From positions 75-64,074 of IMG/VR virus record IMGVR_UViG_3300037225_000815: DNA of 64,000 nucleotides, one strand, 5' to 3'. The translations under genes were made by a program, and so were the position numbers. Origin of the DNA: a virus. Taxonomy: Duplodnaviria; Caudoviricetes. Shown in pieces: positions 40,230 through 63,181 of the stretch. Position 1 is the first letter of the stretch. Each line of letters starts with the position of its first letter. Below the pieces are notes generated by a model. It was not told where the DNA came from, did no database searches, and worked only from the letters and a program-made list of their open reading frames with translations.

Positions 40230-40258
40230 AATATACTCATTTGATCCGCAGTAGTCAA
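40230..40258 (-). promoter_or_regulatory. sigma70-like promoter at the head of the minus arm
   Basis: TTGACT-17 nt-TATATT. Confidence 0.65.
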
Positions 40259-40259
40259 G

Positions 40260-41612: not shown

Positions 41613-44279
41613 ATGTCTACACTTAACTACATCATAGAGACAGTACGCGAAGCCCTGCAGGCTCTCGTAGTATTCGTCTCAACCGCTGCTGCAACTGTGA
41701 AGTTCGCGAGCAAGCGGGCCAAACTCATGCTGCGTACAACGCTGCTCATCGATGCTGATGGCATCTATGACAAGCGGGACAACGTGGTTGGGATCAAGAA
41801 CCTGAGGGTCAGTAAGGTTTCCCTCTCGTTCGAGAAGGCGAAGAACCTTGTTACCAATGCCTTCCTGGCAGGTACCTTTGTGGCTCTCTGTGAACCTCTC
41901 ACAGATCTGCTCAAGGGAATCTCCAATGATGGAAGGGACATTGGGATTAGGGCTCTTAAGGCTGCGCTCGATTTCATCGAGAAGTCTTATGGGCTGACAC
42001 TCGTCGCCAACAGGTACATCGATGGCTTCAACTATGACGATGGCATCAAACGTGCCACATTGTTGTTCCATAAGAATGGACCGAAAGGCTTTGGCGAGGA
42101 TCTCTCCATGGCGCTGTTCGGCGCTCCGCTCCTGATCAAGGGAAACGACACAGTGAAGTTCATGAACTATGTATGGGCTGGAACCCAGACAAGGTTCAGC
42201 ATCATGACCGTGAACTATCTATTCACTGCCAATCATAAGGGCGGAACTGATGGTTCGGGCTGGACAACCCTCGAGTATCTGAACGCCAGGTTCCCTGAAC
42301 TGGCCAAGGAAGTCGTGGATACCAACACCCATCTGATCAAGCAGCAGGCGTTCGCCAGCATACTTGGTCATGTAAGTCCCATCAAGGGATGTATAGCCAT
42401 TGCGTACAACCGCACTGAATGGCATACATTCGGAACGGGAGTCGCTTATGACAAGGCTATCGATGCATTCGTCGTCACTGACAATGAAGTCAAGCTGGCT
42501 GCTGCAGGCATCGAGATAGGCCATGTGTATGAAGGTCGCTTTGGTGTGATCAACATGTCAGGCGAAGAGACACTGCGCAAGCCTTTCTGGAAGGCGAATC
42601 CTCAGCTGCTCGCCAGGACCAACTGGAAGGATTGCACCCGCGGAACAGCGATTGCCAAGGCCAATGCCGATAAGATCCTTGCGGCTATCACTACGAAGGA
42701 CACGTATCTGAAGCAAGTTCTGCATCTCTCCGGTAATGATGTGCAGGATCCCAAGTGGCAGGCTTCCAGGATGAGCGCCATGACAATCGCCGGTCAGCTT
42801 GTGGCTGGCTTGCCGTTCAGCGCATTCGAGTCATCCAAGTCTACCAGCGAGAACATTGCAATGAGGGAGATCAAGAAGGCACTGAAGGGAATGATCTGCT
42901 CTATTGCCAGGCTGAAGATCCCCGGTTCCTATTTCTATCCGCTGGTCGATGATAGGCTGGTTGGAAGATGGGAAGTCGGAATGTCCCCTTGGCTTGCTGA
43001 AGAGCTTGGCAAGCGCTGGAACGTAGGCCGTGACATCCATGATGGAGATACCCTGATGGTTCAGAGGTCTCCGCATATTGGAAGCGGTTATCTGGCAGTT
43101 ACCATCAAGATCATTGACCCGCTGTGCAAGTTCGACGGTATCGTTCTTAGCCGTTGGACTGCCAATCTGCTGGCTGCTGATTGTGATGGTGATCGCGTTT
43201 CACTGAGTCTCCCTATGATCGGCGATGTCATCAATCCTGAGGAGTTCCCCGAGGAGAAGGATGCATCAGAGTTCATGAAGAAGATGAAGCTGATGTCCAC
43301 TGGCAATGCGGTTGCCGATAAGCTTCTCGCTGCCACAGTTGGCAAGCTGATTGGCCTGGTTGATTTCCTCATGAGCATGCTGCATGAACGTGAGGGCAGG
43401 CTCTCCAAGAAAGTCCTGGCGTTCGGCGGCCATGTCTCGCAGGCTCTGATCAATTCCGGTAAGCATGTCGGTGAGGATGTTCTGGACATGGATGCGATCA
43501 GTGACATGATCAATCCGCTGCAGACCATTGTCGATAAGTATGGCAAGGAGAAACAGTTCCGCAAGACTATCTCCTACTTCTATCGCTATATCACCGGCAA
43601 GCTGGACGACATTGACTATGAAGACTTCGTTGAACCCAAGGGCAATTCCCCTGTGTTGAATGAAGCTTATACGACGACTCCGCTCAAGGGCGTCTATGAT
43701 GCTCTCTCCAGCACTGGCGTCAAGCCGTTCTGGTTCAACTATGATTGGTCAGCTGACAAGGCTGAATGGCTCAAGATAGTCAGGAACGCTCAGTCGATCC
43801 TTTCTACACTGGATCCGGATGGCGACTTCTATGTGAACGGCAACCAGGACAAGACGATGTGGGAAGGCAGCAAGGTATTCGTTGACCCTGCATTCTTCAC
43901 AAACAAGAGCCATCTGCCTGTTCTGCATGCCGCCATCAAGCTGCTGGGCAAGACTGCCGCCAATGCAGAGGAAGCAAGGGCGCTTCTCCGCAAGCATTTC
44001 GACGACAAGCTCATGATCCTCAAGGACGAGTATCCCCGTTATCTCGTAGCATTCTGGGCCAGGGTGTTCGCTTCTGGTACTCCGGAACGCGCGCTGATGA
44101 TGTGTCTGAACACGGCTGAGTTCACACTGGTCATCCGGGCAATCAAGAATTGGACACCGGAAGACGGTTTCAACTGGCAGGAACTGGCCAGCTGGTCAAT
44201 TCGGCACATGAGTTATGTGAAGCAGACTATCAAGGAAGTCGACTCAGAGGCTGATGAAGCTAACGAGGAAACCATCTAA
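41613..44279 (+). CDS. Single-chain double-psi-beta-barrel polymerase, YonO/cellular-RdRP-like
   Basis: Ordered motifs TDGSGW, PIKGC, TDNEVK, QRSPH and AADCDGDRV (DxDGD at 43179-43193); AGGAGG SD; 888 aa. Confidence 0.8.
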   Translation: MSTLNYIIETVREALQALVVFVSTAAATVKFASKRAKLMLRTTLLIDADGIYDKRDNVVGIKNLRVSKVSLSFEKAKNLVTNAFLAGTFVALCEPLTDLLKGISNDGRDIGIRALKAALDFIEKSYGLTLVANRYIDGFNYDDGIKRATLLFHKNGPKGFGEDLSMALFGAPLLIKGNDTVKFMNYVWAGTQTRFSIMTVNYLFTANHKGGTDGSGWTTLEYLNARFPELAKEVVDTNTHLIKQQAFASILGHVSPIKGCIAIAYNRTEWHTFGTGVAYDKAIDAFVVTDNEVKLAAAGIEIGHVYEGRFGVINMSGEETLRKPFWKANPQLLARTNWKDCTRGTAIAKANADKILAAITTKDTYLKQVLHLSGNDVQDPKWQASRMSAMTIAGQLVAGLPFSAFESSKSTSENIAMREIKKALKGMICSIARLKIPGSYFYPLVDDRLVGRWEVGMSPWLAEELGKRWNVGRDIHDGDTLMVQRSPHIGSGYLAVTIKIIDPLCKFDGIVLSRWTANLLAADCDGDRVSLSLPMIGDVINPEEFPEEKDASEFMKKMKLMSTGNAVADKLLAATVGKLIGLVDFLMSMLHEREGRLSKKVLAFGGHVSQALINSGKHVGEDVLDMDAISDMINPLQTIVDKYGKEKQFRKTISYFYRYITGKLDDIDYEDFVEPKGNSPVLNEAYTTTPLKGVYDALSSTGVKPFWFNYDWSADKAEWLKIVRNAQSILSTLDPDGDFYVNGNQDKTMWEGSKVFVDPAFFTNKSHLPVLHAAIKLLGKTAANAEEARALLRKHFDDKLMILKDEYPRYLVAFWARVFASGTPERALMMCLNTAEFTLVIRAIKNWTPEDGFNWQELASWSIRHMSYVKQTIKEVDSEADEANEETI

Positions 44280-44816
44280 TAAGCATAGTTAACTATATAT
44301 GCAGATAGATTGGAACGCAGCCGATCCGGTAACTTCCGGCTCTTACGGGGACCTGAGAAGAGTCCTTACCTGTAGGGATAGTAGGCTCCGCCCGATTGGT
44401 TACTAGTGTCCATACGGTAGGCCCTATCCGAAGAGACGCAGGACCCTTTGAATATGTCATATTCGCCCAGGTGGCGACATATTCAAGGTCTGTCCACCCT
44501 TCCTAAAGTGGACTTATCTCATACACTTGCTTACTGGGATGACTTGCCCCAGTAAGACAACGTAGAAACAAAGCCCATCTGCAGACCGTCAGGTTGATGC
44601 AGACTCCCGGAAGATAATGACTCCGGGGTGGACTTGTTCATGTATGAGATTCTATTATGCCCTAGCGGGCATATTCTTTGCCTCAAGAGACGCAGGAACC
44701 CTCGGACTGTCATACCTGAGTGCGAGCCACACAGGACACAGTTAGGGCGTCGCTGTGCCCAGATGCGGACCTGCCTCGAAACAGCCTTTCCCTTGATTCA
44801 CCATAGGAGGTGCCTT

Positions 44817-44993
44817 ATGGATAGGTTCTCCAAATTCATATTCGTCGCCGACGAACACGCCATCATCAAGTTCGTCCATGTACGCCTCAACAGGAACGAG
44901 ACGTACAACTACATCAAGCTCGCCCACAAACTGGAAGACGAGATGAGGCTCTCCATAGAGCGTGAACTCATCCGCAACCGGGCGAGGGCGTAA
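44817..44993 (+). CDS. Small early protein
   Basis: AGGAGG SD; start MDRFSKF. Confidence 0.6.
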   Translation: MDRFSKFIFVADEHAIIKFVHVRLNRNETYNYIKLAHKLEDEMRLSIERELIRNRARA

Positions 44994-45469
44994 CACCAAA
45001 CTGCGTTTAAGAGACGCAGTTTCCTTTGACTACATAGTCAGCCTAACCGCTGAACTCAATAACGTAGCTCACGTAGCCTGATTGAGGGCCAACATGATTG
45101 TCCCACAAAGGTTACACGCCCCAGAATGGGGCAGGTATACTACCTGCGTACTGATTCCTATAGGTACGCAGTTTCCTTTGAGCCTGCATAGAAATGCATA
45201 AGCCTCGAATGGATGGCTTGCCATCGGTAGAGGGGGTTCTATTCAATCCGCAGGAGAGAGCGGTGATGCCAAGTACCTTGGCTTAAACTGCGGGGAAAGG
45301 TGATGACACCCCGCATTATTATTGCATGGAGGACATCATGTTCGAACAATGCCTTATCCTCGTAGTGCTGTTATGCGCTTCAATACTGCTTAACATCATA
45401 CTGCTATCGAGGAAATGACTGCGTAAGGACTACGCAGTTCCTTTCAGAAATACCACAAGGAGGTATATC

Positions 45470-45928
45470 ATGAAGATAGTGACTCGCATCATAAGCGAAG
45501 TTTCCAAGTTCCACGTCATACTGAAGACGAAGCCGGACAACGCTGGCATCAACACCATAGGCTGGTGCGAAATCCGGATACCGTACTTCATGTCCGTCGA
45601 GGCACCCATCATCAACCTCAACAACAACTATGCCCCGTACGGAATACCCGCCTCCATCAAGGAGAAGTTCTCGGAAGGCGACGTGAAGTGGCTCAAGGTC
45701 GGCGAACGTGTGGTCGAGGGCAAGACAGTCCAGAACCACAAATGGCTCATCACAGAGAAAGGCAGGCTTGGTCTCAACCGTGAGATATCCCGGGCTGTGA
45801 AGAAATATGCCAAGGAGTTCGGACTTACGGTGGATGCACCCAAAGTCAACCTGGCCAAGGAAGCGACTACTTCCATTGACACTGGTACTGCGCAGGAGCA
45901 GAGCACCAGTGGCGAGAAGATGGAATAA
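45470..45928 (+). CDS. Hypothetical beta-rich protein (possible nucleic-acid binder)
   Basis: Hairpin element plus AAGGAGG SD upstream. Confidence 0.7.
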   Translation: MKIVTRIISEVSKFHVILKTKPDNAGINTIGWCEIRIPYFMSVEAPIINLNNNYAPYGIPASIKEKFSEGDVKWLKVGERVVEGKTVQNHKWLITEKGRLGLNREISRAVKKYAKEFGLTVDAPKVNLAKEATTSIDTGTAQEQSTSGEKME

Positions 45929-45992
45929 GCACAAGGACTGCGTTACCGGAAGGGACGCAGTTCGCTTTGAATAATACCATAGGAGGTATATC

Positions 45993-46202
45993 ATGTCAGA
46001 AAGAATGGAAAGAGTGAAAGTCGTCCTCATGGTCCAGAAGGCATCAGATGCCATCTGCGACGTAATCCACAACATGACTCCCAAGTCATTCAAGGCATGC
46101 AAACAGTACGTGAAAGCCGTCAGCAAGGCAGTCACGAAACTGCAGAAAGCGGGCGTCATCGAGGAACTCACGGACCTCGTCGGCAAGGCATGGAACAAGT
46201 AA
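45993..46202 (+). CDS. Small helical protein
   Basis: Hairpin element plus AGGAGG SD. Confidence 0.7.
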   Translation: MSERMERVKVVLMVQKASDAICDVIHNMTPKSFKACKQYVKAVSKAVTKLQKAGVIEELTDLVGKAWNK

Positions 46203-46245
46203 TTCCAAACTGCGTAGGGGAAGACCTTACGCAGTTCCATTCGAA

Positions 46246-46300
46246 CGCCATCGCTAGGCTGAAATGCCGGGGCTATGGGTTCGAATCCCAAGATGGCACA
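46246..46300 (+). ncRNA. tRNA-like mini element lacking a D arm
   Basis: GCCATC/GATGGC acceptor-like stem, TGGG-TTCGAAT-CCCA T arm, GGC-TGAAAT-GCC hairpin. Confidence 0.45.
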
Positions 46301-46311
46301 GGAGGCCAACC

Positions 46312-46425
46312 ATGAAACAGTCAAAGGCGGAGAAGAAGGCCATCAAGAAACTGAAGGAGCTCGAGAAGAAAGTCGGCATCACGGCCGAGGAAGCGGAAGC
46401 CCTTCTGAAAGGTCTGTATCCCTAA
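46312..46425 (+). CDS. Short Lys/Glu-rich peptide
   Basis: AGGAGG SD; MKQSKAEKKAIKKLKELEKK. Confidence 0.5.
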   Translation: MKQSKAEKKAIKKLKELEKKVGITAEEAEALLKGLYP

Positions 46426-46584
46426 GAGAACCAATAAGTGAAGAGTCTCCTACACCAGGATTCTAGACAACCTGGACAAACCCGTATAGGCCATGCGGAC
46501 TGGGAGACTCGCGTCCTACTATCCTCCTATACTGGGACTGTGCCAATTAGTATCGGCGCAGTTCCTTTTGACAAGGAGGACACC

Positions 46585-46758
46585 ATGAAGATACTGACAA
46601 TGGAAGAAATCAGTAAGATGCCCATCCCCACCAAGTTGCTCAACGACCTGAGGACTATGGCTATGGACACTGCCGTCAAGGTTCAAAGTCTGAGCCCCGA
46701 GGAGCAGAAGCGCCTCACTGAAGACGCCAAGAGAATCGTACAACAGTACCTGCGTTAG
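46585..46758 (+). CDS. Small protein
   Basis: Hairpin element plus AAGGAGG; its stop lies inside the next hairpin. Confidence 0.65.
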   Translation: MKILTMEEISKMPIPTKLLNDLRTMAMDTAVKVQSLSPEEQKRLTEDAKRIVQQYLR

Positions 46759-46807
46759 GGAAACCTGACGCAGTTCTCTCTGAATACCACACCCAAGGAG
46801 GGTAAAC

Positions 46808-47233
46808 ATGATTACTGTATTACTCATCATCAGTGTACTTGCAAACCTCGGACTGCTCGTCACCATCCTGAAACAGACCAAGTCCAGGAACGACGAACAG
46901 GAAACCCGTGACCTCAAAGCCCGAGAGGAAGCGGAGAAGAAACAGGAAGACTACATAGAAGGCCTGTTACAGAACATCCACGACCAGGACGTCCACATCG
47001 AAGTCCAAGCCAAGGAAATTGCCTCACTGAAAGAGACAATCAAGAGACTGGAAGACAGCATGACCAAGGGCGCCAAACTCGAGGAAGGCCTCAAGAGCGT
47101 CGGTGATGCGCTGTCACCCAATGGATTGGGCAAAGGCATCGGCATGCTAGTCCGCAACATCAAGGCCATAGGGCCCACCATCGGCAACGGGTTCAAGGAA
47201 GGCTACAACCAGGGCCTGCTCGAGAACAAGTAA
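46808..47233 (+). CDS. Membrane-anchored coiled-coil protein
   Basis: N-terminal TM segment, coiled coil, AAGGAGG SD. Confidence 0.7.
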   Translation: MITVLLIISVLANLGLLVTILKQTKSRNDEQETRDLKAREEAEKKQEDYIEGLLQNIHDQDVHIEVQAKEIASLKETIKRLEDSMTKGAKLEEGLKSVGDALSPNGLGKGIGMLVRNIKAIGPTIGNGFKEGYNQGLLENK

Positions 47234-47296
47234 TCAAGCACTGCGTTGGGTGAAAGCCTGACGCAGTCCCTTTCAGAATCTACCAGGAGGTATCAC

Positions 47297-47548
47297 ATGA
47301 ACATGAAACTCGAACGGAACCTCGCAGTCGCCGGAGCAACAACCGGAATCGCCGTCGCCAACGCACTCCGCAACACGGCTATCGGGGCCAAGAAAGTCGC
47401 TTCCTTCACCACGAAAGTGGCCAGGAATGCGTGGGCCTATGTGGTCGCCGGAGCCAAAACAGTCGGCAAGTCGACAGTCAATGCCTTCAAGGGTATCGGC
47501 GAAGTCGGCAAGCAGGAACTCGAGGTTGCCAAGGCCAAACAGCGGTAG
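47297..47548 (+). CDS. Ala/Lys-rich amphipathic protein
   Basis: Hairpin element plus AGGAGG. Confidence 0.65.
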   Translation: MNMKLERNLAVAGATTGIAVANALRNTAIGAKKVASFTTKVARNAWAYVVAGAKTVGKSTVNAFKGIGEVGKQELEVAKAKQR

Positions 47549-47602
47549 ACACAACACTGCGTAGGGTAACTCCTTACGCAGTCGCTTTCGAGGAGGTGCC
47601 TT

Positions 47603-47905
47603 ATGGCAATGACAATGATTATCACCATGTTCGGAATCATGCTGGCTACATCCATCTCATTGTATGAGGTGCTGAGATGTTCCCGGCCGTTCGGCTGGTT
47701 CATCAGGATTATCGACAAGAGTTTCCTGTTCCAGATGGCTTTCCACTTCGCAATCGCCTTCGTCATCAGGAGCATAAGCGGAGAAGGCATGACCGCAGGC
47801 GGTGCAAATCTCGCCTCGACGGCAGTGTTTCCCCTGTACTGCTTCATCAGGAACGCAATCAACGGGAACTACCGCATGCTGAACGGCGGATGGAGGACCA
47901 AATGA
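47603..47905 (+). CDS. Membrane protein
   Basis: About three hydrophobic segments; AGGAGG. Confidence 0.65.
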   Translation: MAMTMIITMFGIMLATSISLYEVLRCSRPFGWFIRIIDKSFLFQMAFHFAIAFVIRSISGEGMTAGGANLASTAVFPLYCFIRNAINGNYRMLNGGWRTK

Positions 47906-48039
47906 TAGCAATCGTGCTCACCACATTATGGGTCCTCTTCATCCTGGCCGTGTTCCATGTCACGTGGCCATGGTACATCATCACCCTGGTCGTAGCGGGA
48001 GCGTTGCTCTGCATCTACATCTTCGACGACAGCTTCTAA
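47902..48039 (+). CDS. Small 2-TM protein
   Basis: ATGA overlap with the upstream gene; GGAGG. Confidence 0.55.
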   Translation: MIAIVLTTLWVLFILAVFHVTWPWYIITLVVAGALLCIYIFDDSF

Positions 48040-48140
48040 GCAAGGAGGCCCAATGCACTTCATACTAGGGCTCATCATCGGTATCATAGTCTACAGATGG
48101 CTATTCTGTAGCAACAACACCAAGACCAAGGAGGTCAAGC

Positions 48141-48674
48141 ATGACGACACAGAACACAAGGACTGACCCTCAAGTCAGCCAGCACGCTCTGGACGCCGTC
48201 CGCATCGCCAAGGAGAAGCACGACAAGGCTGTCCTGCTCAACAAGGCGAAAGTGGAGGAGTCCAGGCTCAAGAGGCGTGAGGCGGGACGCAAGTTCGCCC
48301 AGCGCATCAAGAACGGGGTCGAGAAGACCGTCTCGTGGTATGAGCATGAGTTCACGAACATATGCTATGACGGCATGGTATATGGCGGTGCGTCAGCCCT
48401 CATAGGCGCCACCATAGGCATGCTCATGTCCAACCCGGCAATCATCTCGATGGCTGTCACGTTCGGTGGAATCACCGCCATCATCCCGATAGTCGTCGCC
48501 CTGGCCTACTGGGCTGTCAAAGGCCTGGTAGAACTCGGCAAAGCGACTGTCAGGGCCATCAAGAAAGTCCACAAGGACGCTCCGGTCATCAAGGAAGCCA
48601 TGAAAGAAGGCTCCAAAGTGCCGGCCAATCAGGACCCTCCACCCCCAATGGCTGGGGCAGAAGCCACCGCATAG
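48141..48674 (+). CDS. Membrane protein with two central TMs
   Basis: AAGGAGG SD. Confidence 0.7.
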   Translation: MTTQNTRTDPQVSQHALDAVRIAKEKHDKAVLLNKAKVEESRLKRREAGRKFAQRIKNGVEKTVSWYEHEFTNICYDGMVYGGASALIGATIGMLMSNPAIISMAVTFGGITAIIPIVVALAYWAVKGLVELGKATVRAIKKVHKDAPVIKEAMKEGSKVPANQDPPPPMAGAEATA

Positions 48675-48714
48675 CCATCAAGACTGCATTCCCGAAAGGG
48701 GTGCAGTCCCTTTT

Positions 48715-48852
48715 GTGCTCAAGCGAGGGGGCAGGGGCCCCCGAGCATATCATAATGCTGGGCAGGGACCCAGCGTAATAATAGATGAATCCTTACGCAG
48801 TAAAGGATGAATGGGCTTGGGCGGAGCCCAAATAGCGGGCAGGGACCCGCCA
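48715..48852 (+). ncRNA. Candidate multi-hairpin sRNA with CAGGG(A/G) loops
   Basis: Begins at the purine of a hairpin element; four short GC stems, three with CAGGGR loops. Confidence 0.45.
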
Positions 48853-49246
48853 AAGTGAAACGTGTTTCCAGATAACGGCGAATTCACGTCAAGTTTGGGG
48901 AATATCGAACGGAAAGTGAGTCATTTCTCCAGGTTTGCACGGTTTCGCACGGAATCCCGTGATAAACACGTAATAACCCCCGTAATTTGCTCTGTTTGAG
49001 CGAATAACCTGGGGTAAACAGGTGTTTGAAAGGGCATAGGTCCTGTCCCGTGAGTAGGATCCTGATGGGTGTACCCTATAAGTATCCTGACCGGGAGGGA
49101 TGATGCCCGCCGATTGAGGGATGCCCGGAATGGCCCGCATATATGCGGGAATAAAGGGTGTAGGCTATTCATGTTTATCGGCATGCGACACGCATGCGAT
49201 TAAGGGATTGCGTACTTGTATGGACATCGCTATGAAAGGAGAACGT

Positions 49247-49507
49247 ATGAAGTTCAAAGTTGGCTGGTGGTACCGGCTCGTCGACACAATGCAATCGTTC
49301 AATGGCGACATAATGAACGACTACCAATGGCATAAGTGCGTTGAATCCGTTCCGGACGGCGAATGGACCGCCGTGAAGATGGAATCCGAATCCGGTACTC
49401 CGACAACAAGGCAATACGCATACGACGAAGCGCAGTACAACCCCGGAACACGGGATAAGAACACAGTTTCGTCGCCGGCACCGGAACTGAACGTCAGGGA
49501 AGCATAA
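49247..49507 (+). CDS. Hypothetical protein
   Basis: AAGGAG SD; start MKFKVGW. Confidence 0.55.
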   Translation: MKFKVGWWYRLVDTMQSFNGDIMNDYQWHKCVESVPDGEWTAVKMESESGTPTTRQYAYDEAQYNPGTRDKNTVSSPAPELNVREA

Positions 49508-49552
49508 CCTAACGCAGGGAATCGTCGAAATCTAAACACAAGGAGGCTCGCC

Positions 49553-49903
49553 ATGGCGAGACGAATACGTGAACGTAACAGCCAGTTCAACAAGCGGTTG
49601 GCCGGCGCATTCAACAGGTTCATCGCCCACCAGGCGGACAACCTGGGGAAAGTCGTCTATGACAACCACGAGATGGTCATAGCCATGGGGCTGTCGAACA
49701 TCATAGTGGGAATCGCAGTGTGCGTCCTGACCGGTGAGGTGACGATACTCTATGTCATCGCATCGATAGTGGCGAACACCCTACTGGACATCGGCGTCTC
49801 GTTCCTGTCGTCGCTCATCATGAGGGCGATAAGCGAGAGGCTCGGCAAGGAGGTGAAGCATGGACCGCAAGTCGACATTCAGCTCATACCTCAGTCGATA
49901 TGA
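49553..49903 (+). CDS. Membrane protein
   Basis: AAGGAGG SD; two TMs. Confidence 0.6.
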   Translation: MARRIRERNSQFNKRLAGAFNRFIAHQADNLGKVVYDNHEMVIAMGLSNIIVGIAVCVLTGEVTILYVIASIVANTLLDIGVSFLSSLIMRAISERLGKEVKHGPQVDIQLIPQSI

Positions 49904-50132
49904 CCTGCACTCGATGCAGGTCAGCGACGAGGGCAACACAATCTACGAGTTCGTCCTGAGGACGGACCGCAGGCGGTCCGTGTTCATCGAGGAAACGAAG
50001 TCCCTGATACGGGTATTGGACCCGCAGGTCAGTGACGACGTCGAAACAGTCAACGGATATGAGGACTCTATCCGTTACTTTGCGACGGTAGAACTGAAGA
50101 CGGGAAGCAGATGCCTGCGACAAACCTCGTAG
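49860..50132 (+). CDS. Hypothetical protein
   Basis: AAGGAGG SD. Confidence 0.55.
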   Translation: MDRKSTFSSYLSRYDLHSMQVSDEGNTIYEFVLRTDRRRSVFIEETKSLIRVLDPQVSDDVETVNGYEDSIRYFATVELKTGSRCLRQTS

Positions 50133-50758
50133 GCTTCGGCGACTACCGTGGCAGTCAATGGCGGGATGTACCCACGTCATACCTGATGTGGATACTCTCG
50201 CCCGAGTTCCATGACCACCACGACGCAAAGGTCAATGCCCGCATCGAACTGGCCCGTCGCACGGGGTTCGTACAGAACCACGGAAGCCCGAACAGCCAGC
50301 CAATCTATACCGCACAGGTTAGGGAGGCCGGCGACACATGGGAACCGGAGAGGAAGGAACCAGACATACTCACGGAGCGTGAGGTGTTCCTGATATGCAA
50401 ACTTGCATCGGAACGTTACATCACAAACTCCAATATGCATACATTCCCATCCGGAATGTCAGTACTAGACTGTCGCAGGAAATCGCTTAATGACACTTGC
50501 CATGAATGCTTCACATGGCCAGACGCAGAATCCATTGAAAGGATGATGTCGATAATGCGAGAGCTCAGCGACGACCTAGAAGCGAGAGCCCAAGTTGCAT
50601 CACCCCTCAGGTCACGTCGCAGACGGAACAACCGAGGAACGGAAGAGCTTGCCCAGGACATACTACGGGGCATGGGCGTAGACATATCTGAAGAGAACGA
50701 AGGCCAACCGGAAGAGACGCCAAACGACCCTTTCGGTGACCCAACCATCCCATTCTGA
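50111..50758 (+). CDS. DUF3820-like N-terminal domain protein with SSB-like acidic C-tail
   Basis: FGDYRG...DVPTSYLMWI; ends DPFGDPTIPF. Confidence 0.6.
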   Translation: MPATNLVGFGDYRGSQWRDVPTSYLMWILSPEFHDHHDAKVNARIELARRTGFVQNHGSPNSQPIYTAQVREAGDTWEPERKEPDILTEREVFLICKLASERYITNSNMHTFPSGMSVLDCRRKSLNDTCHECFTWPDAESIERMMSIMRELSDDLEARAQVASPLRSRRRRNNRGTEELAQDILRGMGVDISEENEGQPEETPNDPFGDPTIPF

Positions 50759-50768
50759 AGGAGGACAC

Positions 50769-50990
50769 ATGCTGTCAGACGTCGAAAGAGTAGCCATCGC
50801 AGTCAGGCGCATGGACGCTCTCATGCCTTCCTACTATAGGAAGGAAGCCAAATTCATCGAACTCCTGGAACAGGTATGCGGTTCAGACCGCTTTCTGCGA
50901 CAAGAAGTCGGCAGACACTATGGGGCACAGCCCAAAAGGAAGAGACTAGTCGAAGAGCACCTGACCTTCTTCGACTTAAACCCCCGATAG
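50769..50990 (+). CDS. Hypothetical protein
   Basis: AAGGAGG SD; start MLSDVER. Confidence 0.55.
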   Translation: MLSDVERVAIAVRRMDALMPSYYRKEAKFIELLEQVCGSDRFLRQEVGRHYGAQPKRKRLVEEHLTFFDLNPR

Positions 50991-51349
50991 GGTACGCCTA
51001 CGGCGGAAATGTATTGCACACGGGTTAAGGTGTGCGCCATTGTCCGCTTTCATAGGGTTGAGAACCCGCCCGGGACGGAAGAGCCGGCAATTCGACTCTG
51101 TCGTCCAGGGGCGAGACCCGTTTGTCGCAGGGCTCACGAGTGCAACGCAGTCATACCCAAGACCTTCAGTGAAACCAAGAGGCTACGCATGCTTGCTCAC
51201 TTGCATGCGCCTCGCAATCCGTCTGGGGCGCCCAGCCGGATTCCCTCCGGTTGCTCGACGCCTGCTGGCGTTCGCATCGCAGGCTACGCAAACATGGACT
51301 GCGCCGACCTGACGCAGTCCCTTTCAGATACCATACAAGGAGAATCATC

Positions 51350-51751
51350 ATGAAGAAGACATCATTGCTCATCGGAATCGTGGCAATCATCGCATGCATA
51401 TCTGCCTGCTCGAAGATGAATCCTATGGCGCCCAAGCTGGAATCGGCCCCGGCGACCAACTTCATCGTACCGTGGACGACAATGAATACTACCTACACAG
51501 TATCCAACTTCGTTACAAGACTGACCAATACGTCAGGTAATCTTACAACGTTGGATGTGAGAGTTATATTCGGATTCGCCGACGGAACAGAAGCTCAAGC
51601 GACGACAACCACGCCTGACCAATACGGTGTAATGATATCGTATGGAATGATAGGCTTATCATTCTACACGGACAACAACCGGAACGTGTACCAGAACTAC
51701 TTCCAGAGTGGTGGAGCAACTCCCACCTACTACAGGTACTCAATCAGGTAA
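51350..51751 (+). CDS. Lipoprotein
   Basis: MKK, hydrophobic stretch, then ISA-C lipobox; hairpin element upstream. Confidence 0.7.
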   Translation: MKKTSLLIGIVAIIACISACSKMNPMAPKLESAPATNFIVPWTTMNTTYTVSNFVTRLTNTSGNLTTLDVRVIFGFADGTEAQATTTTPDQYGVMISYGMIGLSFYTDNNRNVYQNYFQSGGATPTYYRYSIR

Positions 51752-52037
51752 CCACGAGACTGCGCCAGGAAGTTCCTGACGCAGTTGCTTTCGATTGTCA
51801 CAGATGGCAGGTGGGATTAGAAGCGTCCAGCCTTTAATGAGTGCGGGCAGACCCCGGCCAGCAAGTGGATATGGGCGGTAACAGTCCATGTCAAGTACTG
51901 CACGAAACCCAACGTGGTACGACTCCTAAGAGGGAGAGGATAAAGCGACCCGCTTCGGCGTAACAGCAAACCATTCATGGCAGTCATGCGGACTTGCTCC
52001 AAGCGATTGGCGCAGTCCCTTTTGAAAGGAGGCGCAG

Positions 52038-52241
52038 ATGCTTACACGATACAAGTCCATCAACCTGATGAAGGCGCAGGAAGTCCGGGCCAAAGCGCTG
52101 GCCAAACTCCTGGGCGCAGAAGTCAACAAGCGGATTGACGTCATCCTGTGGAATCCCCATCACCTGAAGAGCGCTTCGATGATGAAGGACATCACCAGGG
52201 TGGAGCTCATCAAATGCATCCAGAAGGAACTGGCGAAGTAA
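52038..52241 (+). CDS. Small protein
   Basis: Hairpin element plus AAGGAGG. Confidence 0.65.
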   Translation: MLTRYKSINLMKAQEVRAKALAKLLGAEVNKRIDVILWNPHHLKSASMMKDITRVELIKCIQKELAK

Positions 52242-52387
52242 ACCGACAAGGAGGATACATGATTGTACTACTGGCAGTAGCCGGAGTTATCATCTGGCTC
52301 GCACTGGAATGATTCAGTCATAGCGCACCCTCCTAAACTGCGTCGGGCACCATGCCTGACGCAGTCTTATCCGGACAAGGAGGCATC

Positions 52388-52558
52388 ATGAACCAAGGCG
52401 AATTGATAGAATCTCACAGGCAGGAAATCGAGACCGAGATTGCCTGGATGGAAACCACGCTCAAGCAGGCTCTATACCTGAAAGAGGAACTGGCCAAGTC
52501 AAGGGCACGTGTGGAATACCTCGAGGTCTCCATAATGGAACTTGTGTCAAAGACCTGA
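52388..52558 (+). CDS. Small coiled-coil protein
   Basis: Hairpin element plus AAGGAGG. Confidence 0.6.
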   Translation: MNQGELIESHRQEIETEIAWMETTLKQALYLKEELAKSRARVEYLEVSIMELVSKT

Positions 52559-52585
52559 CGCAGTTCCTTTTGCAAGGAGGACACC

Positions 52586-52864
52586 ATGATTACCACGAAA
52601 CTGGTGAATGACATTCATGCAGAAGGCTCGGCCATCAACCTGTTCAACCTGGGCTTCCTATACAAAGGGAGCACATGGGAGATATTCTGCATGTTCGAGA
52701 TGGCCAATTTGTTCCAACACAAGAACATCAGTGAACGCACACAGTGGCTCGTAACCGAAGACCAGAAAGTCTACCTGTCGCAGGACAGCGGGAACGGATA
52801 CCACTCGGAATGGGCGTACTTTGATGTCGAACACGAGACAGTGTTCATTACTGCGCCTGCATGA
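52586..52864 (+). CDS. Small protein
   Basis: Hairpin element plus AAGGAGG. Confidence 0.65.
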   Translation: MITTKLVNDIHAEGSAINLFNLGFLYKGSTWEIFCMFEMANLFQHKNISERTQWLVTEDQKVYLSQDSGNGYHSEWAYFDVEHETVFITAPA

Positions 52865-52909
52865 CGCAGTTCCTTTCGATTAATCCTATACCACAAGGAG
52901 GTAGAGCAA

Positions 52910-53320
52910 ATGGTTAATCAAATCGTCATACCGACGACATCGGAAGCGGTGTCGCTGAGATTCCGGCCGTACCATACGGCCAAGTCCGAGAAACTTCTGG
53001 GATACCTGGAAGTGACTGTGAAGAGCATGATGGGAAGCGTCCTGACTTCGTTCCCCGTCTTCACGTGGCAGGACCCCAAGTCCCAGGCCAAGCGCTACGG
53101 CGTCATCGGCAAGCTCGACTACAAGGTCGGGACGAAGGAACACTCCCACGGCTTCCTGTCACGGGACCTGAAAGCCTACATCAACCGGATACTCGAGGAG
53201 AACTCCTCGATGCTGACCGGTGAGTCCTCCGAGTTCGTCGAGACACATGAGGAGCATGTGCCCGCCCAGCAGGCGAGCGCAGAGTCAACCCCCGACGGAG
53301 AGTCGGAAAGAACCGCCTAA
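52910..53320 (+). CDS. Beta-rich protein with acidic tail (SpoVG/PC4-like guess)
   Basis: SLRFRPY...LLGYLEVTV; hairpin element plus AAGGAGG. Confidence 0.6.
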   Translation: MVNQIVIPTTSEAVSLRFRPYHTAKSEKLLGYLEVTVKSMMGSVLTSFPVFTWQDPKSQAKRYGVIGKLDYKVGTKEHSHGFLSRDLKAYINRILEENSSMLTGESSEFVETHEEHVPAQQASAESTPDGESERTA

Positions 53321-53394
53321 CCAACGACTGCGCCAGGAAGACCTGACGCAGTCTCCTTCGGAGAAATCGTTGATGCTTTAACACAGGAGGCACC

Positions 53395-53670
53395 ATGAAG
53401 TTCGACAAGGAGCTCATACTCAAGGTCAAAGCCGTGGTCTCTATGGAAATCAGGATACTGGATGTCGAAGGCGGAACGATGCTTGAGCAGAACCCCAACA
53501 AGGCCGGCTCGGTATATGCCGACATCTACAGGAACCATAGGGCATGGTTCATGTGCTGGTTCAAGCCGGACAACGGCGACCCATGGAGGCTGTTCACGCT
53601 CTCGCCCACCGGTGAGTTCGAGGAAATCGGTGGCGACAAGATATCCCGTCTCAAGGCAATCATGGGATGA
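53395..53670 (+). CDS. Small protein
   Basis: Hairpin element plus AGGAGG. Confidence 0.65.
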   Translation: MKFDKELILKVKAVVSMEIRILDVEGGTMLEQNPNKAGSVYADIYRNHRAWFMCWFKPDNGDPWRLFTLSPTGEFEEIGGDKISRLKAIMG

Positions 53671-54173
53671 TTCCCTCCCTATCTGCGCCAGGACACAAGG
53701 ATGTGCCTGACGCAGTCCCTTTTGGGACTGCGTATCCGTCAGACAGGGCCGTGATAGCATGTGTGGCGACATGCGTGTAATGATGAGTCTCTCTGTGCTA
53801 TAAACGTGCCGAGGCAGGCCAATAAGCCCTCGGTGGCTTGGACGCAGTTCCTTTTGCATCGTAGGAGAGGCCTACCTGTTGAATATGGTGAAAGTCCATA
53901 GCAGCCTGGGATACTCTCCCAGTGAACAAAAACGCTCCTGCGTCCTGAAGTGGGGGATACCCGCGACTGGACGCAGTTGTTTTCGGATAACCCACTAGGG
54001 CAGACCGAACTTATGTTCCCCTCCAAAGGACATAAGGGACTCTCGCCAATACGGAGTCGTCCGGGAAGAACCGAAACGCCCGGACCTGAAATATCCATCG
54101 GAAGTAGGACATGTACGGGGTAGTACTGGACGTCCCAGCTGCCCCGTCACTTTTACCTTAAGGAGGTAAACCG

Positions 54174-54482
54174 ATGCTAATAGAACCATCAAAAGGAACC
54201 GGTCGAGCAAGATGCAGATTGTGCCGCAAACTCATCAAAGAAGGTGCCCAACAGATACGTATAAAGATGGCATACGCCCAGGAATGCGCACACAGAAAGT
54301 GCATGACCAAGACAAGACGATTCGTATGCCAGGAGTGTAGTTTGAGGAATAGAACAACTCCATGTTTATTGGTTCTTAAAGGATGTGAACCTGATTCACT
54401 TGGGCCGAAACTTTGTCCCATTGATTCTGCGGGTTGGCCTCCCAAATGGGTCGAGATCAAGCTCAAACGGAGGAAATCATGA
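54174..54482 (+). CDS. PARP-type zinc-finger-like protein
   Basis: IEPSKGTGRARCRLCRKLIKEG...HRKC matches the zf-PARP pattern. Confidence 0.6.
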   Translation: MLIEPSKGTGRARCRLCRKLIKEGAQQIRIKMAYAQECAHRKCMTKTRRFVCQECSLRNRTTPCLLVLKGCEPDSLGPKLCPIDSAGWPPKWVEIKLKRRKS

Positions 54483-54871
54483 CCTATCCTGACCATATTA
54501 CAAAAGGATGGCTACGCGAACACCCGGACTGCATATTCGTATTCGGCGACAACATGGCCAGATTCGGACATGGCGGAGCGGCAGCCTTAAGGGACTTGCC
54601 AAACACCTACGGATTCATCACCCAGAAGTATCCGGACTCAAGGCCCGAATCCCATTATAAGCCAGAAGAATATACGCATATCCTGAACACGGAAACCGAA
54701 TTCCTCCGAGAACGCATTCTGTGTAATCCCGATCTTACCTTTATGATTACGAAGCTTGGCGGCGGACTCGCCAACATGTTCAATATCCGCCCGGCAATCA
54801 TCGAGAAGCTCAAGGAGTTCGAGGACACAGCCAAATACCCGAACGTGGTATTCATAGGGGGTAACACATGA
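54479..54871 (+). CDS. Macrodomain-like phage protein
   Basis: IFVFGDN..RFGHGGAA.LR..PN.YGFIT.K and KLGGGLA motifs. Confidence 0.6.
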   Translation: MTYPDHITKGWLREHPDCIFVFGDNMARFGHGGAAALRDLPNTYGFITQKYPDSRPESHYKPEEYTHILNTETEFLRERILCNPDLTFMITKLGGGLANMFNIRPAIIEKLKEFEDTAKYPNVVFIGGNT

Positions 54872-55113
54872 TTATCGGCGGACAGGAATTCCCCGACGTA
54901 TGCGTACCGGAATGCCGGTTGGGCAAGGAATACAGGGGACAGGGCGACCTATGCGACAGATGCCCGATCTTCTGCTGCACCCTGTACCAGGACGAACCCG
55001 GTGAGCCTCCCCACAGGATCCTGGAACCCGACGACTACCGTCCAGACTGGGCGAAAGCCTGGAAGGAATGGTTCGACGGAGGAATGGCAGGATATCCCAA
55101 GATAAGCCTATGA
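54868..55113 (+). CDS. Cys-rich small protein
   Basis: C...C, CDRCPIFCC. Confidence 0.55.
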   Translation: MIIGGQEFPDVCVPECRLGKEYRGQGDLCDRCPIFCCTLYQDEPGEPPHRILEPDDYRPDWAKAWKEWFDGGMAGYPKISL

Positions 55114-55126
55114 CAAGGAGAAGCCA

Positions 55127-55630
55127 GTGTCAAACGAGAATCTGAACATATGTTCCAAGTGCGGCGGAGAATGCTGCAAACTCTTCCCCGGGTTCTACTA
55201 CCCCGATGACTTCAGGAAGCGGAACGGAAGCCTAGACTGGGAAAGGATACTCAACCTCCTTACCTCGGGCCTGGCACAGATTGACAGGTGGGAAGATACC
55301 GAACCAGTCTACTTCCTGAGGCCAAAGATGGTAATGAAGAATGACAGCCATAACGGCATATTCTCATACCCATGGGGCGGGGACCCGGGCATCCATCTGA
55401 CGGAATACGGATGCTCGCTCAAGTACAAACAGCGCCCGTCGCAGTGCCGGCTCCTGGACCCGGTGAAGTGTGAGAAAGGCGACCAGCAGGACTCGGATCT
55501 CGGAAGGGAATCCGCAATGCGCGAATGGAAGAGGCTATCGAATAAGCTACAAGACATCGGCAAGGAAGCCGGAAGGAGAAGAGATGTCACAACAAAGGGA
55601 CATAGCGGTCCTCAAGAAGTTGCTTTATGA
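55127..55630 (+). CDS. YkgJ-like CxxCxxCC metal-cluster protein
   Basis: CSKCGGECCK...GCSL...RPSQCR. Confidence 0.7.
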   Translation: MSNENLNICSKCGGECCKLFPGFYYPDDFRKRNGSLDWERILNLLTSGLAQIDRWEDTEPVYFLRPKMVMKNDSHNGIFSYPWGGDPGIHLTEYGCSLKYKQRPSQCRLLDPVKCEKGDQQDSDLGRESAMREWKRLSNKLQDIGKEAGRRRDVTTKGHSGPQEVAL

Positions 55631-55781
55631 CCGCCGACAGGCTATCATCAACGACAGAACAGTGATATCCAGCGTCGAGGCGGACGACGTTATCGACGCC
55701 CTGACAAGCGCAATATCAAGCATACGGCGAAACACTCGCATTACGTGTCCGGAATGCGACGCCGAAATCGACCTGGACTAA
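55584..55781 (+). CDS. Small protein
   Basis: Start MSQQRD; CPEC near the C-terminus. Confidence 0.5.
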   Translation: MSQQRDIAVLKKLLYDRRQAIINDRTVISSVEADDVIDALTSAISSIRRNTRITCPECDAEIDLD

Positions 55782-55792
55782 AGGAGAACAAC

Positions 55793-56314
55793 ATGGCGAA
55801 ACTCAAATTCGAACACGATGTCAGATGCACGGCATGTGGAGGAACTGGACTATACCGCGGAATGGCGGAACGCGACGGAGCGACGGTCGTCTGCTACAGA
55901 TGCGAAGGAACGGGTAAGGAGCATATCGTACATGAGTACGAACCGTTCAATGGCAGGAAACTCGACCCGACCATCAAGCGCGTCTACCAGACTGCCGGAG
56001 GATATTGTATCACCGACAAAGACGTCACGCATGCTGGGCAGGTAATCCACTTCTCGAAGGCCGGAATCTCCTACCAAGAATGGATGGACGGCGGTAAACC
56101 ACTGCCCATAAGGGAACTCCATTGCCCAGTCATACACTTCGGACAGGGAACACCAATCGGAGAATGGTTCAAGCACCACCATGACCACGAGACATTCAAG
56201 TCAGACCTACATGAATGTGAAATGTGCTTCAGCCCATGCTCAGAGAAGCATCGGGAACAGTACTGGGCGTTCTACGACCAGCATGAAGCCAAATTCCTGA
56301 AACTGAAGGAGTGA
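55793..56314 (+). CDS. DnaJ-type Zn-finger protein
   Basis: CTACGGTG...CYRCEGTG; AAGGAG SD. Confidence 0.7.
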   Translation: MAKLKFEHDVRCTACGGTGLYRGMAERDGATVVCYRCEGTGKEHIVHEYEPFNGRKLDPTIKRVYQTAGGYCITDKDVTHAGQVIHFSKAGISYQEWMDGGKPLPIRELHCPVIHFGQGTPIGEWFKHHHDHETFKSDLHECEMCFSPCSEKHREQYWAFYDQHEAKFLKLKE

Positions 56315-56592
56315 ACATGCCAGAATACCTCGGAGACCGAACAATAGCCGAGAAAGAGCATGAAGACTCAATCCAGGAACAGGGGTTCATGGACGAGTTC
56401 GAATGCATTCATGGTGTACCAATCGAAGAGGACTGCCCGGAATGCTTCCTCGACAACTTCGGGGACATGGCCGGGAACAATCACGTCCTCAAGGAGATGA
56501 TATCCGATATCGAGATCCCTAGTCCCGATACAAATCCCAAGAGTAAGGAGGGGCAATGCGGAGATGCATCTCCAAGCAGGCGAGACGGATAA
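56311..56592 (+). CDS. Acidic hypothetical protein
   Basis: CIHG....CPEC. Confidence 0.5.
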   Translation: MNMPEYLGDRTIAEKEHEDSIQEQGFMDEFECIHGVPIEEDCPECFLDNFGDMAGNNHVLKEMISDIEIPSPDTNPKSKEGQCGDASPSRRDG

Positions 56593-56683
56593 TCGCCAGA
56601 ATTCTCAGCTAGGTCATTGGCTGCGCCGGGGTAACCTGACGCAGTCATCCTTGGCAGGTTGGTTCCCCAAGGAGCAACCACAC

Positions 56684-57166
56684 ATGAACGATACCATCAA
56701 GATTCGCAAGGAGAGCTATGAGGAGCTCAAGCGGTCCGACGTGAGCAAGCACATCTCCATTGGCTTCAGGTCATACGAAGATGACATGAAGTTCGGCTAT
56801 GCCACCGTGACCATCACCACCCCCATCGGCTCGGTCAAACTCAGACTCACCGTCTGGAAGAACAAGCAGGACGCCAGCAAACCGCGCCTGGGCTGGTACC
56901 AGACCTTCGACGGCTACACGACTTCGGTCGTGAAACCCAAGGAAGGCGCTGACCCCGCCAAGAACAAGTTCCGTCTCCCGACGGAATCAGCCGTGGATTC
57001 CAGCATCCACGACATCATCGACGCGATGATTATCGACGCTATCGCCGGGACCAAGAAGAAGAAGGCCCCGCCGAAGAAGACACCGAAATCGGAGGAGCAG
57101 TCTGGAAAGCCCGCTCCGGCGAAATCGGAAACCGAACAACTCGAGACCGACGCCCGTACGGCGTAA
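56684..57166 (+). CDS. Beta-rich protein, paralogue of 52910
   Basis: SIGFRSY...FGYATVTI; hairpin element plus AAGGAG. Confidence 0.6.
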   Translation: MNDTIKIRKESYEELKRSDVSKHISIGFRSYEDDMKFGYATVTITTPIGSVKLRLTVWKNKQDASKPRLGWYQTFDGYTTSVVKPKEGADPAKNKFRLPTESAVDSSIHDIIDAMIIDAIAGTKKKKAPPKKTPKSEEQSGKPAPAKSETEQLETDARTA

Positions 57167-57529
57167 GAGAACAGAGGAACTAAGACCTGCCAGGACTGTG
57201 TACGCAAGTGCGCAGTTCCTTTTGGATAATGTACGGCTGTTTAGCCCACACTAAACAGAAATTCATATTCATTGGTATGCACAGGAGGCATGAATGAAAG
57301 TGTTGAAGAGCTACTTAATAACCGACCTATCGTTCGAGGACAAGGAAAGGATATTCCAGGAGGCCAAGGCCGCCGGACACCAAGTGTATGTGACAACAAG
57401 GGACGCCACGCAATACATGGAAATAAGGGAGGGAACCAATGTCACTGGAAGCGACAAGAAAGCTGATACTTGACATCTGGAAGAAGGCACGACTGGACAT
57501 AGCAGCAAGACGCAAGAAGGAGAGGGCAC

Positions 57530-61564: not shown

Positions 61565-61660
61565 ACGATTGTCCAAATGATTAGACAGCGTGTGGGGGAA
61601 GTTCCTCGCACGCTGTTTGTTTACCATCCGTTCATGGTTGTTGGCATATCAGGAGGGAAG

Positions 61661-63131: not shown

Positions 63132-63172
63132 GGACCCGGAGGGAGCCCGCTAGGGAATCCGCTCCGGGTCTT
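63132..63172 (+). terminator. Terminator-like hairpin
   Basis: GGACCCGGAG...CTCCGGGTCT-TT. Confidence 0.5.
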
Positions 63173-63181
63173 TGGAATACT

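Follow-up and report, generated by a model that had tools for sequence, protein, structure and literature searches.

What does a hairpin do that recurs some two dozen times in one block of small phage genes, always on the same strand and always followed by a short pyrimidine tail and a purine? The question is raised by IMG/VR record IMGVR_UViG_3300037225_000815, the single-contig genome (64,074 bp) of an uncultivated tailed phage (Duplodnaviria; Caudoviricetes), analysed here as a window of 64,000 nucleotides (nt) that comprises the whole genome minus 74 bases. In the element, a hairpin whose conserved base is CTGCG/CGCAG is followed by a pyrimidine tail of 8 nt, TyCCyTTY, which leads up to a purine (Y, pyrimidine; R, purine). 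Its copies follow the gene for a putative RNA polymerase of 888 residues and precede an operon with a second polymerase gene.

Our best explanation, to which we assign a probability of about 0.4, is that the element is a composite terminator/start junction read by a phage polymerase. At the RNA level, the hairpin and the pyrimidine tail would form the end of the upstream transcript and protect it. In the DNA, the next start would be set at the purine by three features together, namely the invariant 3′ arm, the tail of 8 nt and the step from Y at −1 to R at 0 (GACGCAG-TyCCyTTY-G-R-A). The reader would most likely be the 888-residue two-barrel enzyme, whose gene lies just upstream of the block, and the small ORFan genes, together with several structured non-coding RNAs, would make up about 20 short transcription units, the last of which would begin at 57224 and include the gene for the second polymerase. 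That transcripts end here, that new ones start at the purine and which polymerase reads the element are all parts of this explanation that we infer from the sequence.

Sequence and structure of the element family

A preliminary description of this DNA had listed 24 copies with a fixed 8-nt spacing and a purine, and all of them are present. Each purine (21 G, 3 A), by whose position the copies are named below, stands exactly 9 nt after (C/T)GCAG. With the purine as position 0, position counts over the 24 copies give a 16-nt core from −15 to 0, G-A-C-G-C-A-G-T-y-C-C-y-T-T-Y-G. Positions −12 to −9 of the 3′ arm are invariant, Y at −1 and R at 0 are found in 24/24 copies, and the CC inside the tail (−6/−5) is conserved in 15/24 and 19/24, the tails containing 4–6 T among their 8 nt. 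The A at −14 is kept in 20 copies, including seven in which it faces a C. Past the tail, conservation is weaker than in the core, with R at +1 in 21 copies and A at +2 in 15. The constraint on the 3′ arm, the unpaired A at −14, the tail CC and positions +1/+2 goes beyond what a hairpin needs, which argues for a composite junction.

The family stands out clearly from the background. The pattern CTGCG-N3-20-CGCAG has 16 matches where 1.24 are expected, a number reached by none of 100 shuffles; 14 of these fall within 45.0–56.7 kb on the + strand, and the other two, at 12602 and 40007, lack a tail. GCAG followed by at least 7 pyrimidines in 8 positions occurs 29 times on the + strand, 22 of these being listed elements, and 14 times on the − strand, where no listed element is hit and the match at 45410 mirrors the palindrome of copy 45446. 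A covariance model trained on 21 copies and searched against both strands of the genome recovered its training copies at 23–47 bits. Outside the training set it also found copy 53856 and, weakly, copy 44450; copy 44704 was not reported at E ≤ 10. The best match beyond 44.4–57.3 kb scored 10.6 bits (E 0.81), and matches on the − strand were lower-scoring mirror images of palindromes. The family is therefore confined to one block and to the + strand, and is absent from the virion arm, as the preliminary description had it; of its 24 copies, 22 are solid and two (44450 and 44704) are degenerate. The element family is real and striking.

The left arm pairs with CGCAG in 22 copies, and the pairing goes on inward. 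The A before CTGCG pairs with T at −8 in 15/24 copies, and the stem often enters the tail by 1–2 bases. In the 21-copy alignment 92.4% of the cells assigned to pairs are paired, as against 84.0% in shuffled alignments and 22–37% with slid partners. Double changes are found in 6 of 11 pairs (13 cells in total), which none of 500 shuffles reached; pair 7, for example, is C-G in 10 copies, U·G in 7 and A-U in 5, and copy 48715 has a compensated change in the conserved base itself. The stems comprise 6–14 pairs, with energies from −5.9 to −25 kcal/mol, the weak ones (52878, 45028 and 45446) lying between −5.9 and −8.3 kcal/mol. The loops, some with inner hairpins and some of GNRA type, measure from 3 to about 45 nt, and G·U pairs and a C·A mismatch are tolerated; by hand count, about 21 G·U and about 12 A·C cells are found, so that mismatches affect both strands. 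The pairing is supported by covariation, and the structure is of RNA type. It follows that the hairpin would be transcribed from upstream and form part of the 3′ end of the upstream RNA.

The DNA runs that match this genome are peat metagenomes. Near-identical sequence was found in four of them with no variation within any element, so that no population covariation can be read. Two motif scans of IMG/VR returned at least 117 and 94 stretches, each with a single match; among the 80 loci examined from the first scan and the 78 from the second, none had two model matches at E ≤ 0.01. One locus (L025) came up in both scans at two places but found no support from the covariance model.

Placement in the gene block and other signals of the genome

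Placement was assessed on our own gene calls, which are based on Shine-Dalgarno sequences and are not a curated annotation. Between 44.28 and 57.30 kb there are 22 gaps of 25 nt or more, and 19 of them contain an element, in some cases two or three. The six gaps of that size in the + strand arm outside the block (two in the early operon, four after 57.3 kb) carry none, and the tightly coupled gene runs at 49.1–51.3 and 54.2–56.6 kb are free of internal elements. The hairpin begins between 18 nt inside the upstream gene and 29 nt past its stop codon, or just before the next start. In most copies this is 7–12 nt past the stop; in five (45446, 46782, 51326, 52572 and 52878) the stem begins where the upstream gene ends or before that point, in agreement with the intergenic or stop-overlapping position first described. 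The gene that follows copy 56653 probably starts at 56684 rather than at 56564.

In long gaps the element adjoins the stop (46243, 48715, 51793, 53724), the next start (46570, 52024, 52373) or both ends of the gap. Copies 46570 and 52373 lie 96–112 nt past the preceding stop and only 15 nt ahead of the next start codon. Such mixed placement is as expected of a unit that serves both neighbours, and argues for a dual role. If the elements act as stops, their presence in 19 of 22 gaps means that stops in series would need either re-initiation or near-complete read-through.

Several gene-free segments fold better than their dinucleotide shuffles. The most structured in the block is 44450–44677 (+), 228 nt between the two degenerate elements (z −5.8; 0/200 shuffles as stable), followed by the 400 nt of 48715–49115 (+) after element 12 (z −4.5; 0/100 shuffles), in which several hairpins with CAGGGA-type loops can be seen. 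Weaker signals come from 53985–54160 (z −2.7), 45028–45143 (z −2.5) and 45180–45325 (z −2.2), while 44704–44800 (z 0.0) and 53724–53792 (z −0.8) fold no better than shuffles. Since tandem elements bound such segments, these may be discrete RNA units. None of the structured segments has a match in Rfam, which returned nothing at E ≤ 1 over 44200–57400 and, at the gathering score, only six transfer RNAs (tRNAs) in the genome.

Some further features were noted in the leaders. A tRNA-like module occupies 46247–46300 (+), after an element and ahead of the gene at 46312, in whose 5′ leader it lies; besides an acceptor-like stem of 6 bp (GCCATC/GATGGC) it has a small hairpin and a textbook T-arm, GGGTTCGAATCCC, and is called by neither ARAGORN nor Rfam. 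The segment 45338–45418 (+), initially taken as non-coding, holds a 26-codon open reading frame with a good Shine-Dalgarno sequence that would encode the hydrophobic peptide MFEQCLILVVLLCASILLNIILLSRK. The leaders of many genes that follow elements between 45446 and 52910 carry TACC, which pairs with GGTA around the AGGAGG ribosome site (for example TACCACAAGGAGGTA); this small predicted hairpin would present or mask the Shine-Dalgarno sequence. Of 20 block proteins searched against Pfam, 18 match no family, whether at E ≤ 0.001 or at the curated cut-off; a DUF7831 protein and a DUF2116 match below cut-off are the exceptions, and the block looks like a typical early ORFan array.

Other parts of the genome use other signals, which sets the element apart from generic ones. 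The − strand arm (1–40 kb) encodes the major head protein, tail sheath, portal, large terminase, a sigma factor and the six tRNA genes. Its gaps contain near-consensus σ70-type promoters, TTGAC(G/T)-17/18-TATAAT-like, the one at 16506 being TTGACG-18-TATAAT (Table 1); neither hairpin elements nor a terminator family were found in this arm. The + strand arm runs from 40.8 kb to the end of the window. Ordinary hairpin-plus-T terminators with stems unlike that of the element lie on this strand at 61585–61630, after the second polymerase gene, and at 63140–63190, after a gene ending at 63111. A σ70 scan gave 21 promoter-like sites against 15.1 expected, and no high-scoring site clear of coding sequence was seen on the + strand of the block. 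We also considered a σ70-type promoter hidden in the element and rejected it, as the overlapping sites place the −10 box in the Shine-Dalgarno or coding region.

Between the divergent arms, a gene-free region of about 500 nt contains, at 40255–40560, repeated CGGATCC/GGATCC words and ATACACCCC-like repeats, which may be an origin or an operator array. The word TAC(T/G)AA(A/T)C occurs at 40765, 41308, 41344 and 41580 (+), 25–27 nt before the start codons of three early genes, that of the 888-residue protein included, and a variant, ACTAAAC, stands at 57250 after the last element. Over the whole genome the word is no commoner than chance would have it (3 seen against about 4 expected, on our own estimate) and only its clustering and spacing attract notice; it may be an early-class signal. 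A megablast of 41613–46000 against 50,697 phage records gave no match, and a terminase scan of IMG/VR returned only 12 loci of 20–23% identity and nothing closer.

Table 1. Coordinates of the elements and of associated features. Scores are those of the covariance model.
Feature	Position	Strand	Score (bits)	Remarks
Element 1, degenerate	44404..44450	+	11.2	E 0.54; tail GACCCTTT; stem with mismatch
Element 2, degenerate	44678..44704	+		Nothing at E ≤ 10; tail GAACCCTC
Element 3	45001..45028	+	36.8	
Element 4	45144..45180	+	31.6	
Element 5	45419..45446	+	36.0	Purine A
Element 6	45938..45969	+	37.5	
Element 7	46210..46243	+	47.1	
Element 8	46538..46570	+	37.3	Left arm CTGTG, U·G pair
Element 9	46750..46782	+	42.1	Upstream stop codon overlapped
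Element 10	47241..47275	+	43.1	Purine A
Element 11	47557..47590	+	43.5	
Element 12	48684..48715	+	31.6	CTGCA/TGCAG compensated pair
Element 13	51299..51326	+	36.8	Purine A; upstream stop overlapped
Element 14	51760..51793	+	45.7	
Element 15	51993..52024	+	23.1	Left arm irregular, bulge
Element 16	52338..52373	+	39.7	
Element 17	52541..52572	+	23.5	Left arm irregular; upstream stop overlapped
Element 18	52851..52878	+	37.2	Weak stem, −5.9 kcal/mol; upstream stop overlapped
Element 19	53328..53360	+	46.6	
Element 20	53683..53724	+	38.1	
Element 21	53793..53856	+	16.4	E 0.017; untrained; insert of ~45 nt with own hairpin between arms
Element 22	53938..53985	+	32.7	
Element 23	56621..56653	+	34.7	
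Element 24, last	57196..57224	+	37.1	Followed by operon with second polymerase
Putative 888-residue two-barrel polymerase (P0001), orphan, single-chain	41613..44279	+		Predicted catalytic region RSPHIGSGY...AADCDGDRVS
1162-residue β/β′ fusion polymerase, by Pfam and PHROG	58076..61564	+		Downstream of last element
Phage sigma factor, virion arm, by Pfam and PHROG	29558..30514	−		Sigma70_r2 E 2.7e-7; PHROG 351 E 6.7e-26
Promoter-like sites	16506-16477, 14822-14794, 24633-24605, 34373-34345, 40258-40230	−		

Candidate polymerases and competing explanations

The 888-residue protein is likely a two-barrel single-chain polymerase of the QDE-1/YonO/Thermus-phage kind. A DxDGD loop, predicted to be catalytic, is preceded by an R-x-P-x-H/G motif, as in YonO/QDE-1-like enzymes, and aligns, at a sub-threshold E of 0.15, with the DFDGD loop of the virion polymerase gp96 of phage P23-45. 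Searches among billions of proteins gave no more than three close homologues, with identities of 56, 51 and 40%, and a further two to three that are distant, all on contigs of 0.7–5.2 kb; RSPHIGSGY and AADCDGDR are invariant in 4/4 sequences of the close group, and R485, P487, D523, D525, G526 and D527 in 6/6 of the alignment. Pfam reports Rpb1_2 at E 0.21 only, below cut-off, and there is no PHROG match, no sequence match in the PDB and, by tblastn against the 50,697 phage records, no match at E ≤ 1. The AlphaFold model has a mean predicted local distance difference test (pLDDT) score of 52.8. A Foldseek search with this low-confidence model returned QDE-1 (E 2e-8), P32 gp64, P74 gp62, P23-45 gp96 and gp66 of the crAss-like phage phi14:2 as top matches, at template modelling scores of 0.1–0.24. 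In a protein-language search the nearest Atlas clusters belong to the phage/bacterial RNA-dependent RNA polymerase family PF05183 (score 0.90). Weak, convergent evidence thus makes the two-barrel class plausible for what had been called a polymerase like YonO or RNA-dependent RNA polymerases; this likely assignment is to the class and does not extend to kinship with YonO itself.

The second polymerase is, by its sequence matches, a very small β/β′ fusion. Its 1162-residue open reading frame matches RNA_pol_Rpb2_6 (E 1.1e-11, residues 374–456) and RNA_pol_Rpb1_2 (E 5.9e-7, residues 832–892), both above the curated cut-offs, and is assigned by PHROG to the RNA polymerase beta subunit; no relative was found in IMG/VR by its peptide patterns. 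No element precedes the 888-residue gene or occurs in the short upstream operon to which it belongs, and the 1162-residue gene lies behind the last element, so that the 888-residue enzyme or that of the host must act first. This gene order suggests the 888-residue enzyme, and not the host's or the second phage polymerase, as the reader of the elements. With the 888-residue enzyme, the β/β′ fusion and a sigma factor of its own, the phage may transcribe its genome in three stages and largely without the host enzyme.

Several points weigh against a composite junction read by the 888-residue enzyme. The preliminary description took the fixed spacing as the mark of an RNA 5′ end, and the 8-nt spacer and the Y/R step do fit, Y(−1)/R(0) being the preferred start-site dinucleotide of two-barrel polymerases. 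However, Y(−1)/G(+1) after about 9–10 nt also makes up the elemental pause signature known from multisubunit polymerases, so that the letters of the element fit a pure stop signal as well. The overlap of hairpin and would-be promoter is strict in every copy, which a single RNA-level signal would equally explain, and the conservation from +1 to +4 may in part reflect a ribosome-site leader (GAATACC...AGGAGGTA) shared by some copies. Stems had been said to start exactly at the purine, but they do so in 12/24 copies as against 39.5% of random windows started at G, which is not significant (p 0.20), and stems of at least four pairs in 9/24 as against a background of 21.5%; we rejected them as support. 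No RNA run is among those that match this DNA. The assignment of the 888-residue protein draws on a model of pLDDT 52.8 and on sub-threshold sequence matches. For co-occurrence of polymerase and element, no relative with useful flanking DNA was found in IMG/VR, GTDB or metagenomes: scans of IMG/VR by protein and by alignment (A1) gave no relative, and the covariance model finds no element in the two relatives with DNA, L118 (GTDB genomes, 3328-bp contig, 145 nt past the polymerase gene) and L119 (metagenomes, 2507-bp contig ending without downstream DNA). Directly after its polymerase gene L118 carries a T-arm-like hairpin, CCTGGTTCAAATCCAGG, similar to that of the module at 46247–46300.

It is possible, if less probable, that the elements are terminators or attenuators only, that is, a family of intrinsic signals at which either the host enzyme or a phage polymerase would stop or pause. 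Expression of the genes behind them would then depend on read-through or on an antiterminator that recognises the conserved lower stem; alternatively, a flap-less phage polymerase would ignore hairpins that stop the host enzyme. The G+C-rich stem followed by a pyrimidine tail, the stop codon that in most copies lies 7–12 nt upstream of the stem or inside it, the RNA-type structure and the likeness to a pause signal all agree with this, and phage P23-45 provides a precedent in the sequence-conserved stop motif of a phage two-barrel polymerase, as described in PMC10770324. On the other hand, only 4/24 elements pass a simple terminator scan with a combined stem, loop and tail rule, several stems are weak, neither the fixed C residues of the tail nor the conservation at +1/+2 is needed for release, and generic terminators with other stems are found elsewhere in the + arm. 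A bare terminator leaves unexplained the start-linked look of 46570 and 52373, the structured spacers enclosed by tandem copies, and expression behind 24 stops in series of essential genes that include the second polymerase, and for these reasons the composite junction is preferred. A more radical version of that junction, which we consider quite unlikely, would have the enzyme enter once upstream, release its RNA at each junction and re-initiate de novo at the next purine. Release would occur as the hairpin forms and the 8-nt pyrimidine hybrid melts, with the enzyme staying on the open bubble; the 8 nt would correspond to the hybrid length, the Y/R step would be both release point and start point, and a single entry site would yield a series of units of capped length. 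Among DNA phages, such a mechanism would correspond to what non-segmented negative-strand RNA viruses do at their gene-end/gene-start junctions.

RNA processing or stabilisation is an unlikely role. Here an endoribonuclease of host or phage would cut a long early transcript at a fixed distance from the lower stem, as in T7 RNase III or Cas6-type processing; the upstream fragment would keep the hairpin at its 3′ end, and the one after it would have a defined 5′ end. A conserved lower stem below a variable upper stem and loop is typical of proteins that recognise the base of a stem, the distance that would serve as ruler does not vary, elements set off genes as well as structured RNAs, and the tRNA-like T-arm module after one element hints at maturation at the RNA level. 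Yet the Pfam scan of the 20 block proteins recognised no nuclease, and a single far-upstream promoter would have to sustain 13 kb of uninterrupted transcription through hairpin-plus-tail signals. RNase III sites of the T7 early type need about 20 bp or more of double-stranded RNA, for which stems of 6–14 pairs are too short.

The DNA-hairpin promoter of N4 type put forward in the preliminary description fares worse still, and we hold it to be very improbable. An inverted repeat would extrude in supercoiled DNA and a polymerase would start 9 nt downstream; as in N4, a hairpin would thus stand a fixed short distance upstream of a phage-polymerase start, here a candidate one. N4 virion RNA polymerase promoters are short perfect hairpins of 5–7 bp with a 3-nt loop on the template strand, read by a T7-like and not a two-barrel enzyme. 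The conserved lower stem of 5–6 bp is close to that size, and QDE-1 and the crAss-like gp66 accept single-stranded templates, but the long and variable loops, their inner hairpins and GNRA-type folds, the G·T (in RNA, G·U) pairs and the mismatches on both strands disfavour a cruciform and point to RNA folding; the element does not form a short perfect extrudable hairpin. Least probable of all, in our estimate, are operators of the stoperator type, asymmetric DNA sites at which a phage repressor would block elongation through the early block. The core of about 16 bp is asymmetric, co-oriented with transcription and placed in short gaps, like the stoperators of mycobacteriophage L5, but the covarying hairpin and its fixed position relative to stop and start codons would be left unexplained, and there is no repressor-like protein among the block proteins scanned. 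The ideas that the tail might be an anti-Shine-Dalgarno mimic or a CCA-like tRNA 3′ end, and that of a Cas6-like 8-nt handle, were weighed by eye only and dropped.

Comparison with known systems

Very few of the two-barrel single-chain phage polymerases have known promoters and terminators. Here, beside an orphan polymerase gene, one compact candidate signal is present in about 22 natural variants. This makes a direct biochemical test with synthetic templates possible, although the phage is uncultivated. If the elements are stop-restart sites, they would represent a new transcription mode for DNA viruses; if they are ordinary terminator-promoter cassettes, they would extend an architecture known from T4-like phages to a phage-polymerase system. 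A limited literature search for precedents did not find the element motif, and in the PA5oct paper (PMC7318152) the term "stem-loop" occurs only in a supplementary table legend.

The element shares with intrinsic terminators a stable G+C-rich RNA hairpin, weaker than −8.5 kcal/mol in three copies, directly followed by a pyrimidine tract of about 8 nt, with U at four to six positions, just past stop codons. It differs from them in its lower stem, conserved in 22 copies, in the C fixed at two tail positions, in the conservation of the purine and of +1/+2, in its extreme density and in its start-linked copies. Promoters of phage polymerases (T7, phiKZ or P23-45 style) place one conserved motif at a fixed distance upstream of many starts, with a purine at +1; the element has a motif and a purine, at what would be candidate starts. 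YonO of SPbeta is likewise a distant relative of multisubunit enzymes, a single chain of about 100 kDa that transcribes a defined block of phage genes; it has one mapped start ahead of a single late operon, its promoter being stated as undetermined (PMC5467207, Forrest et al. 2017). The 888-residue protein differs in having no direct sequence match to any phage record, so that the likeness is one of class.

A closer parallel is Thermus phage P23-45. For its two non-canonical two-barrel polymerases, conserved motifs are described at mapped starts, 14 and 7 in number, and for one of the enzymes a conserved motif of 26 nt at seven mapped stops (PMC10770324, Chaban et al. 2024). As is proposed for our phage, a strongly conserved motif marks closely spaced starts of small early genes, and the P23-45 polymerase structures are among the Foldseek matches of the 888-residue model. 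The two systems differ in that the start and stop motifs of P23-45 are described as separate and are experimentally mapped, whereas here a single fused element is known from its letters.

By analogy, the closest known architecture is that of the PeSL cassettes of T4-like phages, in which a promoter and a stem-loop are combined between ORFan genes (PMC2839356, Arbiol et al. 2010; PMC4122927, Comeau et al. 2014). As these papers describe them, they too are repeated, conserved composite units in the gaps between small early ORFan genes, followed by a Shine-Dalgarno sequence and a start codon, and their stem-loop is a terminator or attenuator that overlaps or abuts the promoter. The element reproduces the repeated unit with stem-loop, Shine-Dalgarno sequence and start. 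It differs in the promoter: PeSLs carry σ70 −35/−10 boxes read by the host enzyme, whereas the element has no such boxes, its conserved part being the 3′ arm, the 8-nt pyrimidine tail and the purine, and the phage encodes its own polymerases. With PeSL cassettes and the motif-bound starts and stops of P23-45 already in print, "new expression system", as the locus was first called, is too strong a term, and a wholly new system is not established. Given its resemblance to both, the element is best placed among composite terminator/start cassettes, as a variant tied to an orphan polymerase family.

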